The translations under genes were made by a program, and so were the position numbers. The notes below the pieces were generated by a model. It was not told the DNA's origin and ran no database searches. It was given only the letters and a program-made list of their open reading frames with translations. Below, piece by piece: positions 51,422 through 60,389 of a stretch of 64,000 bases of DNA (the first letter of the stretch is position 1; the number at the start of each line of letters is the position of its first letter). Source of the DNA: Verrucomicrobiia bacterium (GTDB lineage: Bacteria; Acidobacteriota; Polarisedimenticolia; Gp22-AA2); assembly GCA_035638075.1 (NCBI GenBank), contig DASRAU010000021.1, forward strand, positions 73,230 through 137,229. Direction: 5' to 3'.

Positions 51422-51425
<4 letters not shown>
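50136..51425 (-). CDS. fadA: Acetyl-CoA C-acyltransferase (thiolase, FadA-like)
   Basis: Thiolase active-site regions (NRNCGSGIEAI; NGGAIALGHPVGCSGVRL) over ~430 aa. Confidence 0.85.
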
Positions 51426-52882
<1,457 letters not shown>

Positions 52883-52928
52883 GGGAGATTCGCCGCGCCG
52901 GCAAGCGTTGCGCGCGGACGACGATGAT

Positions 52929-52963
52929 AACAAAAAGCGGGGCCCGGAAAGTCCGGGCCCCGC
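52929..52963 (-). terminator. Rho-independent terminator for the receiver-HtrA gene (GCGGGGCCCGG-loop-CCGGGCCCCGC followed by UUUUUGUU on the minus-strand transcript)
   Basis: 11-bp perfect GC stem with 5-nt loop. The plus strand shows aacaaaaa immediately 5' of the stem, i.e. a U-tract 3' of the hairpin on the minus strand. It lies 58 nt beyond the HtrA stop. Confidence 0.75.
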
Positions 52964-53020: not shown

Positions 53021-55156
53021 TCAGTCTTCCTTCGGGACGCGCAGCGTGACGTAGCGCGAGATCGGGTCGCCGCCGGTCCGCTGCGGCGGGTTGATGATGT
53101 AGAGCACCAGCAGGCTGTTCGGCTTCGCCTTGCGGATCTCCTTGCGGTACTCGGAGAGGCTCGACACCGGGACCCGGTTGACCTCGACCACCACGTCGCC
53201 GTTGTTGAGCTGCTTCTCCCAGGCCTCCGAGACGCGCGACACGTGCGTGATCACCACGCCCTTGGTGTCGCGCGGCAGCCCGATCTCCTGCAGGATCGAC
53301 GGGGTCAGCTCCTCGACGGTGATGCCCAGCTTGGTCTCGTTCTCCTCCACGCCGGGACCCTGCTCGCCTTCGCCCTGGCCGGATTTCTCGCCGCCGGAGC
53401 CCGAGGGACGATCGCCCAGGTTGGCGGAGAGGTTGACGGGCTTGCCGTCGCGCAGCACCGAGATCTTCACCTTCGAGCCCGGGGCGCTCGCCGAGATCAG
53501 CCGCACCACCTCATCCGAGGAGGTGACCGGCTTGCCATCGATGGCGGTGATGATGTCGCCGCGCTTCAGGCCCGCCTGGTCCGCGGCCTGTCCCGGCGTG
53601 ACCGACTGCACCAGGGCTCCCTGGTCGTCCTTGAGCCCCCAGGCCTCGGCCATGTCCGGGCTGATCTCGCCGACCGTGATCCCGAGGTAGCCGCGCGTCA
53701 CCTTGCCCTTGGTGCGCAGCTGGGTCATGACCTCCTGTGCGATGCTGGCCGGGACCGCGAAGCCGATCCCCTGGCCGACGCTGCTGATGGCGGTGTTCAC
53801 GCCGACCACCTGGCCCGACACGTTGACCAGCGGTCCGCCCGAATTCCCGAAGTTGATCGCCGCGTCGGTCTGGATGAACGAGTCGAGCGAGAAATCGCGC
53901 GACAGGCCGCCGAGCTTGCGCCCCTTGGCGCTGACCACGCCCACCGTGACGGTGTGCTCGTACTGCAGCGGGTTGCCGACGGCGATGACCCAGTCGCCGA
54001 TGCGCAGCGTGTCGGAGTTCCCGAACCCCAGGTACGGGAGCTTCTTGGCCACCTCGATCTTGATGAGGGCGATGTCGGTGCTCGGGTCGGTGCCGACGAC
54101 GTCGGCGTTGTAGTCGTGCCGGTCGTCGGTCAGGTTCACCTTGATGCGCGAGGCGCCCTCGACGACGTGGTAGTTGGTCAGGATGTAGCCGTCGTCGCTG
54201 ATCAGGAACCCGGACCCGCCGCTCGTCTCGATGTCCGGCTCGTCCTGCTGGTCGGGAGCCTGCGGACCGCGCCGGTGCGGATTGGGGGTCTGCGGCCCTC
54301 CCGGGCCCTGCGGACCCTGCGGCCCGAAGAAGAACTCGAACGGATCGCCGCGGAAGAGCGGCTGCTTGCTCTTGCTGCGGTCCGAGACCTCGGTGGCGGT
54401 GATGCTGACGACGGCCGGGTTCACCCGCTCGGCGATGTCGGCGAACGAGCCGGGGACGGCGCCGGTGGAGCCGGCATTCATCTGGGCCACCGCCGCCGCG
54501 TGCATCGGCCGGCCGGCGTCGAGGCCGGCCTCGGCCGCGCGGCCCGGCAGGGTCAGGTTCAGCCCGCCCGCCAGCACCATCCCGAAGACGACCGAGCCGA
54601 GCGCGATGAGCGCCAGCGTGACGAAACGACCCTGCTTCTGCATGGATTGTGGCTCCTTGATCCCGCCCGGAATTCCGCCCGCCGAAGGAACGTCAGTATA
54701 GGACCCGCCGAAAGGCGTGGTCAAGAAAGGCGCGTCCTGCGCCCCGGCGCGCCGCTGGTCCGGGGCGCCCTCGGTCGCGAGCAACCGCTCGACGGTGCCG
54801 AGCAGGCGCGCCGGATCCACCGGCTTGTCGATGACCGCCTCGATCCCGAGACGCGCCGCGCGCTCCCGCAGGGCGGAGTCGGCGAAGGCCGTGATGAGCA
54901 GCGCGCGTCCGGAGAACTTCGCAGCCCCCTCCCGCAGCCGGTCGATCAGGTCGAGACCGCACAGTCCGGGCATCTGCTGATCGAGGATGAGGAGGTCGGC
55001 GTTGCGCAGCACCGCGGGGTCCTCGATGGCCTCGCACGACGCCGCCTGCAGCACGATCCGGTGCCCCAGCTTCCCGAGCAGCCGGCCATACGTCGCCAGG
55101 GCGGCGGGGTCGTCCTCGATCACGACGATGGTCTTGGGGCCGGAGCTGGAGGTCAT
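53021..55156 (-). CDS. Single ORF encoding a CheY-like receiver domain, ~40-aa linker, TM helix and DegP/HtrA-type serine protease with two PDZ domains
   Basis: Receiver residues (IVVIEDD, LLILDQQMPG, LLITAF, IDKPV). No stop codon before SMQKQGRFVTLALIALGSVVFGMVLAGG (TM). Trypsin-like triad (NYHVVEG, DIALIKI, GNSGGPLV). PDZ1 and PDZ2. An internal AAGGAG sits 9 nt before M172. Confidence 0.65.
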   Translation of the reverse strand: MTSSSGPKTIVVIEDDPAALATYGRLLGKLGHRIVLQAASCEAIEDPAVLRNADLLILDQQMPGLCGLDLIDRLREGAAKFSGRALLITAFADSALRERAARLGIEAVIDKPVDPARLLGTVERLLATEGAPDQRRAGAQDAPFLTTPFGGSYTDVPSAGGIPGGIKEPQSMQKQGRFVTLALIALGSVVFGMVLAGGLNLTLPGRAAEAGLDAGRPMHAAAVAQMNAGSTGAVPGSFADIAERVNPAVVSITATEVSDRSKSKQPLFRGDPFEFFFGPQGPQGPGGPQTPNPHRRGPQAPDQQDEPDIETSGGSGFLISDDGYILTNYHVVEGASRIKVNLTDDRHDYNADVVGTDPSTDIALIKIEVAKKLPYLGFGNSDTLRIGDWVIAVGNPLQYEHTVTVGVVSAKGRKLGGLSRDFSLDSFIQTDAAINFGNSGGPLVNVSGQVVGVNTAISSVGQGIGFAVPASIAQEVMTQLRTKGKVTRGYLGITVGEISPDMAEAWGLKDDQGALVQSVTPGQAADQAGLKRGDIITAIDGKPVTSSDEVVRLISASAPGSKVKISVLRDGKPVNLSANLGDRPSGSGGEKSGQGEGEQGPGVEENETKLGITVEELTPSILQEIGLPRDTKGVVITHVSRVSEAWEKQLNNGDVVVEVNRVPVSSLSEYRKEIRKAKPNSLLVLYIINPPQRTGGDPISRYVTLRVPKED

Positions 55157-55171
55157 CGCCGGCGGAAAACA

Positions 55172-55186
55172 GCAAGCGTTGTGCCA
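55172..55186 (-). promoter_or_regulatory. Perfect sigma-54 (-24/-12) promoter consensus TGGCAC-N5-TTGC reading toward the receiver-HtrA gene
   Basis: The plus strand reads gcaa-gcgtt-gtgcca, which is TGGCACaacgcTTGC on the minus strand. It lies 16-30 nt upstream of the ATG at 55156 and just downstream of an NtrC-type activator gene. Confidence 0.5.
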
Positions 55187-55341
55187 CGGTCAGGAGCGCG
55201 CGATTCCTTAGGAGGACGGGCGTCCTCCTCGCCCCGGCGGGGTCCCCGACTGTCCCTCCACGTCACCGACCCGCGCCAATTTGACGCCGGGTCCGCGCCC
55301 GTCGGGTCCGACCCGACCCGGTCCGGGCCCGGGACGCCGGC

Positions 55342-60265
<4,924 letters not shown>

Positions 60266-60389
60266 AGAGCGCCCTCCGCGCGCCGAGAGGATGGGGAATC
60301 GAAGCGTTCACGATAGCACAGCCGCCGGAGGCGGCCGCGCGGCGCGGTGTCCCCTCCGCGCAGCACCGCACCGGCGCGGCTTCCCGTCG

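Follow-up and report, generated by a model that had tools for sequence, protein, structure and literature searches.

The fused reading frame and its domains

A single open reading frame (ORF) of 711 codons occupies positions 53021–55156 of a 64 000-nucleotide stretch of the acidobacterial contig DASRAU010000021.1 (contig positions 73 230–137 229; the whole stretch is referred to as the window). The ORF and all other features described below lie on the minus strand; coordinates given from the higher to the lower number follow the direction of reading. The ORF starts with ATG, contains zero internal stops and encodes, in order, a receiver (REC) domain, a tether encoded by promoter DNA, a transmembrane (TM) anchor, an HtrA protease domain and two PDZ domains (PDZ1 and PDZ2). 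The original prediction, made from the letters of the window, had described it as a receiver joined in frame and without a stop, through a TM segment, to a periplasmic HtrA/DegP-type protease. This ORF proved to be real and inherited within a clade rather than an assembly error, as it recurs in a second contig (L001) and in 28 protein clusters at 59–81% identity. The GC content of the host genome is ∼70%.

Pfam models matched the 711-residue protein with Response_reg (PF00072) at residues 10–122 (E = 7e-16; 58.8 bits, cutoff 30.2), Trypsin_2 (PF13365) at residues 314–453 (E = 2e-34) and PDZ twice, at residues 485–580 and 611–678. The CheY-like receiver domain (54791–55129) carries the complete set of phospho-site residues that had been named at the outset, here renumbered as D15/D16, D59 (in LLILDQQMPG), T89 (in LLITAF) and K111 (in IDKPV); these are invariant, with T or S at position 89, in 52 orthologues (37 fused and 15 separate). 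At the aromatic switch position (K-3) the residue is V, I or L. The trypsin-fold protease domain (53798–54217; residues 314–453) has the catalytic triad H330, D361 and S439, which is invariant in an alignment of 37 sequences, and is followed by PDZ1 and PDZ2 (53123–53704), as expected of the canonical protease with two PDZ domains that had been described. The NCBIfam model TIGR02037 (Do family serine endopeptidase) scored 448.3 bits (cutoff 416.2) over residues 237–688, and the DegP, DegQ and DegS equivalog models scored far under their cutoffs; on these profile scores the HtrA part is therefore a Do-family member (TIGR02037; MEROPS S1C) and not an orthologue of DegP, DegQ or DegS. Sequence matches in the PDB (DegP, DegQ, MucD, AlgW and DegS) were limited to residues 221–688, the best solved relatives being DegP, DegQ and MucD.

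An AlphaFold2 (AF2) model of the fused protein was built on the 37-sequence alignment. It contains a confident (βα)5 receiver spanning residues 5–129 (pLDDT 81–95), in which five strands alternate with helices over residues 9–127, a structureless segment at residues 130–175 (pLDDT about 30), a helix at residues 176–197 and then the protease and PDZ domains. This helix corresponds to the hydrophobic segment that had been noticed between the two domains, a putative TM signal-anchor at F178–L199 (54560–54625), with K/R residues on its N-terminal side and hence a predicted N-in topology. Fused and unfused HtrA share a highly conserved anchor, with A182, F191, G192, A196, G197, G198 and L199 invariant across the orthologues of both kinds. 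Such conservation is unusual for a simple anchor; its small-residue face may serve helix–helix packing in the membrane. Between a conserved GDPFEFFFGP motif and the protease core is an insert of low complexity, GPQGPQGPGGPQTPNPHRRGPQAPDQQDEPD (54224–54385; residues 258–311), in which Gln, Pro and Gly are abundant; it differs in length between lineages and has a pLDDT of <50.

A protein search that covered 5.8 billion proteins returned an identical sequence (P0001) and 27 further full-length clusters of 685–736 residues at the identities given above, all of which contain Response_reg, Trypsin and PDZ domains. The clusters come from ENA, JGI, NCBI and Logan assemblies, the named ones belonging to Candidatus Polarisedimenticolia (Acidobacteriota), and the proteins are annotated just as 'Do family serine endopeptidase' or 'serine protease Do'. 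Two short calls of ∼530 residues, P0010 (84% identity) and P0030 (72%), were considered as unfused members of the fused clade and rejected, as both are truncated at contig edges with the frame open to the edge. A DNA scan was performed on one genome per GTDB species using the HtrA N-terminus without REC as the query, which leaves it unbiased toward the fusion; it yielded 24 Polarisedimenticolia loci. A scan of metagenome contigs returned chiefly distant HtrA genes of the Thermoanaerobaculia type and added six useful loci, and three more contigs were looked up. Nine loci from independent assemblies are fused (the window, L001, L002, L003, L007, L009, L010, L081 and L082). Of these, L001, a contig of an independent metagenome-assembled genome (MAG) from a different assembly, is 98% identical to the window and has the same open frame. 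Four contigs that carry the same syntenic Polarisedimenticolia locus (L002, L003, L009 and L020) are labelled as Dongiaceae, Patescibacteria group, Candidatus Cryosericum and Candidatus Binatia, and are probably mis-binned or mislabelled MAG contigs.

Expression signals within and upstream of the ORF

A putative σ70-type promoter for htrA is contained within the fused frame at 54695–54724, consisting of a −35 box TTGACC (54724–54719), an 18-nt spacer and a −10 box TATACT (54700–54695). It has 10/12 consensus matches and is the sole σ70-like site in 2.6 kb, compared with 0.1 expected in shuffled sequences. The 160 nt before the htrA ATG were aligned for 28 loci (nine fused, ten with a separate REC gene and nine in which REC is distant, degenerate or absent). 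TTGAC and TATACT, 17–18 nt apart, proved invariant irrespective of the state of REC, and no other columns did; the GAG of the Shine–Dalgarno sequence and the ATG of htrA are nearly invariant. In the window the Shine–Dalgarno sequence AAGGAG (54658–54653) precedes the ATG of Met172 (54643–54641) with the 9-nt spacer that had been reported, the element as a whole lying at 54641–54658 and marking the predicted start of a stand-alone HtrA of 540 residues. The stretch GGCGGGATCAAGGAG is almost invariant, including its synonymous positions, in 12 fused-clade loci. An intrinsic terminator with a 12-bp stem (11 GC pairs) and a T tract follows htrA at 52937–52963; none was found between REC and htrA. 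From these conserved signals (promoter, Shine–Dalgarno sequence, ATG and terminator) htrA is predicted to remain a complete transcription and translation unit starting at Met172. That a stand-alone HtrA may also be produced, as first suggested from the ribosome-binding site, is now strongly supported by comparison of the loci, since the promoter (TTGACC-18-TATACT), the Shine–Dalgarno sequence and the Met172 ATG are kept in every related locus, fused or not.

The tether (54644–54772; residues 129–171) is composed of a variable REC tail followed by the htrA promoter and 5′ untranslated region (5′UTR) read as codons, and is predicted to be disordered. It had been taken for a 40-residue protein linker, a description that does not hold, as its only conserved 'residues' are DNA signals: 'LT-x6-YT' is the −35 and −10 boxes and 'GGIKE' is the ribosome-binding region. 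The GC content at third codon positions (GC3) is 0.95–1.0 across REC and HtrA and 0.60–0.70 precisely in codons 141–171, because the promoter and the ribosome-binding site occupy those codons. An RNA thermometer or other 5′UTR structure was considered as the explanation of the 'PS...GGIKE' pattern and rejected, the consensus fold reaching only −4 kcal/mol and the single-sequence z-score being +1.0.

Upstream of REC a candidate σ54 promoter of the −24/−12 type, TGGCACaacgcTTGC, is located at 55172–55186, 16 nt from the REC ATG. It has GG at −24 and GC at −12 within TGGCAC-N5-TTGC and is the only perfect match in the 64-kb window. The element precedes REC in 24/24 loci, with 21 perfect matches, and in most loci the ATG follows TTGC by 16–19 nt. 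With such spacing the leader would be no more than a few nucleotides long and the σ54-dependent mRNAs almost leaderless; REC has no Shine–Dalgarno sequence, which would follow from so short a leader. About 95 nt upstream of the −24 box lies a palindrome, GGCGTCAAATTGGCGC (55273–55288; GGCGYCAAATTGGCGC at 55288–55273), which is recognisable in seven of eight aligned fused-clade loci (the window, L001, L081, L082, L003, L009 and L010) and is a candidate upstream activator site (UAS) for a flanking activator of the NtrC type. Two NtrC-type σ54 activators with REC, AAA+ and HTH_8 domains flank the ORF, one upstream at 55342–56700, in conserved synteny, and one downstream at 51422–52933. A sensor kinase had been placed next to the ORF in the original prediction, but the neighbours are these regulators, and the nearest histidine kinase (58817–60307) is separated from the activators by ligA.

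Relatives and origin of the fusion

A receiver hidden Markov model (HMM) was built from the fused proteins and run on the loci. It detected an orthologous receiver gene (130–195 bits) next to htrA, on its upstream side, in about 20 of the 24 Polarisedimenticolia loci, within a conserved order of LigA, NtrC-type regulator, REC, htrA, NtrC-type regulator and thiolase. REC is separate in about 17 loci, where its own TGA stop and the downstream htrA ATG are 47–191 nt apart (416 nt in L084); the annotated separate products are 138 and 145 residues long. REC is lost or reduced to in-frame remnants in a few loci. Degenerate in-frame receiver remnants ('LISAFPSEAIRDEAAPLGVAGLIGKPVEA') abut htrA upstream in two lineages of the gp22 AA3 type (L021, 3721–3880; L022, 1353–1512) and no receiver whatsoever is present in L013, L019, L083 and L086; the receiver has thus been lost several times, with htrA and its promoter retained. 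A receiver upstream of htrA was found in none of 123 more distant homologous loci, mostly from Thermoanaerobaculia. In the Thermoanaerobaculia-type loci (L023–L160) a receiver-like match was present on the htrA strand in 73 of 130, and all 25 that were inspected sit about 900 nt 3′ of the catalytic Ser. An NtrC-type gene with a receiver lies directly downstream of htrA in many of these distant loci, as does the downstream activator in the window, so the pairing of htrA with a bacterial enhancer-binding protein (bEBP) is older than the small receiver gene.

Because REC is separate in most relatives and absent upstream of htrA in all 123 distant loci, the ancestral arrangement is, as judged from gene order, two genes, REC and htrA. 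Two genes whose separating stop was lost, which had been offered as one explanation of the ORF, is accordingly the correct evolutionary origin, most relatives having a separate REC gene of 138–145 codons that ends at its own TGA, 47–105 nt ahead of htrA. It had also been proposed that orthologues with consistently separate REC and htrA genes would expose the fusion as an artefact; the genes are indeed separate in most of the class, but not in the clade of the window, where 31/31 members are fused. A recent duplication of the receiver of a flanking NtrC-type regulator was rejected as the source of REC, the identity being just 28–30%.

The way in which the stop was lost can be followed by frame. 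In the unfused loci the receiver frame stops at the TGA inside the −35 box (TTGAC) in ten of 17, across nine tail lengths (for example in L020, L077, L085 and L163). The −10 box is followed by GA (TATAC-TGA), and the htrA promoter thus contains stops in two of three frames. In the window these off-frame TGA codons are at 54723–54721 and 54695–54693. Both alternative frames end within the promoter in the window and in the eight other fused loci: frame +1 terminates at the TGA of T-TGA-C and frame +2 at or before the TGA of TATAC-TGA, these two codons lying at −80 and −52, respectively, counted from the htrA ATG. The fused clade uses the sole frame that reads through, in which TTG-ACC is Leu-Thr and TAT-ACT-GAC is Tyr-Thr-Asp, and the 18-nt spacer and a 51-nt 5′UTR keep the REC frame in register with htrA. 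On this comparison of frames the REC–htrA fusion is derived, a REC gene that has lost its stop reading through the promoter of its neighbour. In one locus, L012, which nests with the fused group P0027–29, a 1-nt deletion in the 5′UTR (50 nt) has produced a separate REC that ends in an ATGA overlap with the htrA start.

A neighbour-joining (NJ) tree was calculated from the HtrA part with bootstrap support. Three groups each received 100%: G1, with 31 sequences including the window; G2, with three fused sequences and L012; and G3, with three fused sequences. G1 and G2 were joined at 82%, and all three at 19%. G1 spans about 35% amino-acid divergence, and the fusion is kept throughout.

Between the −10 box and the htrA ATG, 9/9 fused loci have a segment of 51 nt and 36 of 37 fused proteins one of 17 codons, whereas 16 unfused loci show 13 lengths between 19 and 67 nt, and even close unfused relatives differ (44/43/49, 29/22, 19/23 and 24/25 nt). 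This length being fixed in fused lineages and free in unfused ones, the alignment suggests that ribosomes read the segment and that the fused state is being kept. The fused sequences also have 14 lengths of the REC tail, which require at least 13 indel events, all of them in frame. A selection test of the form (1/3)^13 on these events was withdrawn as too strong, since the unfused lineages also keep a preferred frame (10/17); the in-frame indels could alternatively result from triplet-biased slippage in period-3 GC-rich coding DNA or from selection on both states.

Products of the locus and comparison with known systems

The probable reading of these data is that the ORF is a derived fusion which has retained the expression signals of the downstream gene, and that the locus gives rise to two products. 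In the ancestral state, which most Ca. Polarisedimenticolia retain, a σ54-dependent gene with a short leader would have encoded a single-domain response regulator of about 140 residues directly upstream of htrA. Its 3′ end would have run into the σ70-type promoter of htrA, its stop often being the TGA inside the −35 box (T-TGA-C), and htrA would have encoded a membrane-anchored Do-family protease with its own promoter, Shine–Dalgarno sequence, ATG and terminator. In the clade of the window REC would then have shifted into the only frame in which both promoter boxes are sense codons, and from there through the 51-nt 5′UTR into htrA. Transcripts from the σ54 promoter, activated by a flanking NtrC-type regulator, would run through to the end of htrA and be translated from the REC ATG into a bitopic N-in protein of 711 residues, with a cytoplasmic REC, a disordered tether of about 45 residues, the TM anchor and a periplasmic protease with two PDZ domains. 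The internal promoter and initiation at Met172 would yield the HtrA of 540 residues, which has the anchor only, and long and short subunits could co-assemble in HtrA trimers. Two roles are favoured as the most likely for REC in the long product: tethered at the membrane, it could act as a phospho-acceptor or sink and so feed back on the kinase/NtrC pathway by which it is induced, or its phosphorylation-driven dimerisation could cluster HtrA trimers and change their oligomeric state or activity. It seems less likely that a conformational signal passes directly along a tether that is disordered and varies in length, and on through one TM helix.

Several points weigh against this reading. The promoters and transcription starts are predicted, as are the translation of the long form and its topology in the membrane. 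Branches with poor support place unfused lineages among the three fused groups, and there may thus have been one or two origins, or one origin and several losses. The remaining points also speak for a neutral loss of the stop, in which a frameshift would have put REC into the only open frame and the long product would be made but functionless in itself; the working units would be REC with a passenger and, above all, the short HtrA, and the fusion would persist by inheritance and by the scarcity of stops in GC-rich DNA. For neutral loss alone speak the two-gene ancestry and the intact internal promoter and ribosome-binding site, which make the supply of HtrA independent of the fusion. In L012 the fusion has been lost with both genes intact, which makes it, from the alignment, dispensable at least once. 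The tether shows no conservation at the protein level, synonymous and non-synonymous changes looking alike. As tail indels are confined to one preferred frame in unfused lineages too, frame retention is weaker evidence than it appears. The lack of in-frame stops was likewise set aside as weak evidence of selection, because DNA of 70% GC, as here, seldom has off-frame stops outside the promoter boxes (about three of 18 frame-sequences).

Neutral loss of the stop is nevertheless considered to be somewhat unlikely. The fusion is kept by all 31 members of a clade with about 35% amino-acid divergence, and the 5′UTR segment is frozen in length in fused lineages only. Any frameshift would harmlessly restore a separate REC by way of the TGA in the −35 or −10 box, yet only one such event was seen, and a folded domain of 130 residues on the anchor of a membrane protein is unlikely to be selectively invisible.

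It is unlikely that the long form is a periplasmic protease under phosphorylation control, in which the state of REC passes through the single TM helix, for example by REC dimerisation, and switches the proteolytic or chaperone activity of HtrA, making it a response regulator with its output domain outside the cytoplasm. The architecture itself and the intact phospho-acceptor site in all fused members would fit this explanation, as would the unusual conservation of the TM helix and the adjacency of REC and htrA across the class, which is a hint of the Rosetta-stone type. Fusions of REC to enzymes, such as CheB, work by phospho-control. Against it, a disordered and unconserved tether of about 45 residues that occurs in 14 lengths would be a poor conformational transmitter, unfused HtrA has about six cytoplasmic residues and so offers no pre-existing docking site for REC, and a short HtrA that lacks REC is predicted still to be made. 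The two-product form of this proposal, in which the long form is a true transmembrane response regulator whose phosphorylated REC switches the periplasmic protease (for example by dimerisation that cross-links HtrA trimers) and the σ54/σ70 promoter pair sets the ratio of regulated to unregulated subunits, is doubtful; if true, REC–HtrA would be the first case of a response regulator whose output domain lies outside the cytoplasm.

An artefact or pseudogene, that is a stop or frameshift missed between REC and htrA in this contig, as the original prediction had cautioned, is effectively refuted: a stop in this interval is common among relatives and GC3 dips in codons 141–171, but the promoter and ribosome-binding site account for the dip, the REC and HtrA domains are both intact and conserved, and the same open frame is present in L001, L081, L082, L002, L003, L007, L009 and L010 beside the window and in 28 protein clusters, the independent fused sequences numbering 37.

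Compared with known proteins, the HtrA part resembles DegP, DegQ and HtrA (Do family, MEROPS S1C) in its trypsin fold, His-Asp-Ser triad and two following PDZ domains, and passes the TIGR02037 cutoff. It differs from them in having a conserved N-terminal TM anchor in the inner membrane rather than a cleaved signal peptide (an AXA motif is not conserved) and, in the clade of the window, in the cytoplasmic receiver that precedes the protease. Receivers are connected to proteolysis in CpdR and RssB, and CheB is a receiver fused to a hydrolase. The domain described here is, like CheY and the receivers of these three proteins, complete in its D-D/D/T/K set; those receivers act on cytoplasmic partners or domains, whereas here the fused enzyme is predicted to lie across the membrane. 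A second in-frame start with its own ribosome-binding site yields an N-terminally shorter protein from one ORF in CheA-L/CheA-S, ClpB and IF2. The internal start of the fused ORF differs from these in being the original start of a once-separate gene with a full promoter, the long form being the novelty.

The closest precedents for the layout are membrane-anchored HtrA proteins. PepD (HtrA2) of Mycobacterium tuberculosis has a cytoplasmic N-terminal domain (residues 1–101), one TM segment, a protease and a PDZ domain; the cytoplasmic domain of Rv1223 has 175 residues, and pepD lies immediately downstream of the two-component system MprAB, by which it is regulated (PMC3062566). The fused protein shares with PepD and Rv1223, by prediction, a cytoplasmic domain, a single TM segment, a protease and PDZ domains, and precedents for its topology and for the pairing of htrA with a two-component system in the genome are thus found in PepD, Rv1223 and mprAB-pepD. 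The mycobacterial cytoplasmic domains are not receivers, however, and a distinct DNA-binding protein serves there as the response regulator; here the cytoplasmic position is taken by the receiver itself, with control apparently exerted through σ54 and NtrC-type activators. The cytoplasmic domain of the fused protein, being a receiver, is not a homologue of the mycobacterial ones, and the solved M. tuberculosis HtrA1 chains returned in the PDB search matched residues 308–578 only. HtrAw of Brevibacillus has an N-terminal domain that contains a TM segment, a protease and a PDZ domain and occurs in long anchored and short forms, the short one arising by autoprocessing (PMC5359297). The N-terminus with a TM segment, followed by protease and PDZ domains, is a likeness to HtrAw and to the membrane-anchored HtrA of Bacillus; the short form predicted here differs from that of HtrAw in coming from an internal promoter and start codon.

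What is new is probably that the cytoplasmic domain of an anchored HtrA is a receiver, an architecture that appears undescribed and is made of ordinary parts. The original prediction had not recognised the architecture as described, and this stands: no report of REC–HtrA or of Response_reg with Trypsin_2 was found in the literature, a result that does not prove absence as the Galperin (2006) census of response regulators lay outside the search. Receiver domains go unmentioned in a 2008 survey of serine-protease architectures, and no chain among the best 60 in the PDB search spans both REC and HtrA. The ORF is a lineage-specific REC–TM–HtrA fusion with an internal promoter, confined to uncultured Acidobacteria, and its origin can be traced with unusual clarity. 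Should the long form be made, it would represent a new class of two-component output, a receiver tethered to an extracytoplasmic protease, and would provide a Rosetta-stone link between a single-domain response regulator controlled by σ54 and NtrC and envelope protein quality control in Acidobacteriota. To our knowledge, there are almost no experimental data on signalling in this phylum. Whatever the function, the locus offers a clean, datable origin of a gene fusion, in which a shift by one frame led to read-through of a promoter, predicted to be still functional, that has stops in the other two frames. It also carries a caution for surveys of domain architecture and for gene callers, as the 'linker' is regulatory DNA and not protein sequence.

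Beyond the upstream activator, ligA (56757–58820) follows the histidine kinase gene (58817–60307) with an overlap of 4 nt at its start, the two together occupying 56757–60307, and the NtrC-type regulator comes after ligA. This order of kinase, DNA ligase and activator is odd; at least its ligA–NtrC part is kept in L163 and L164.

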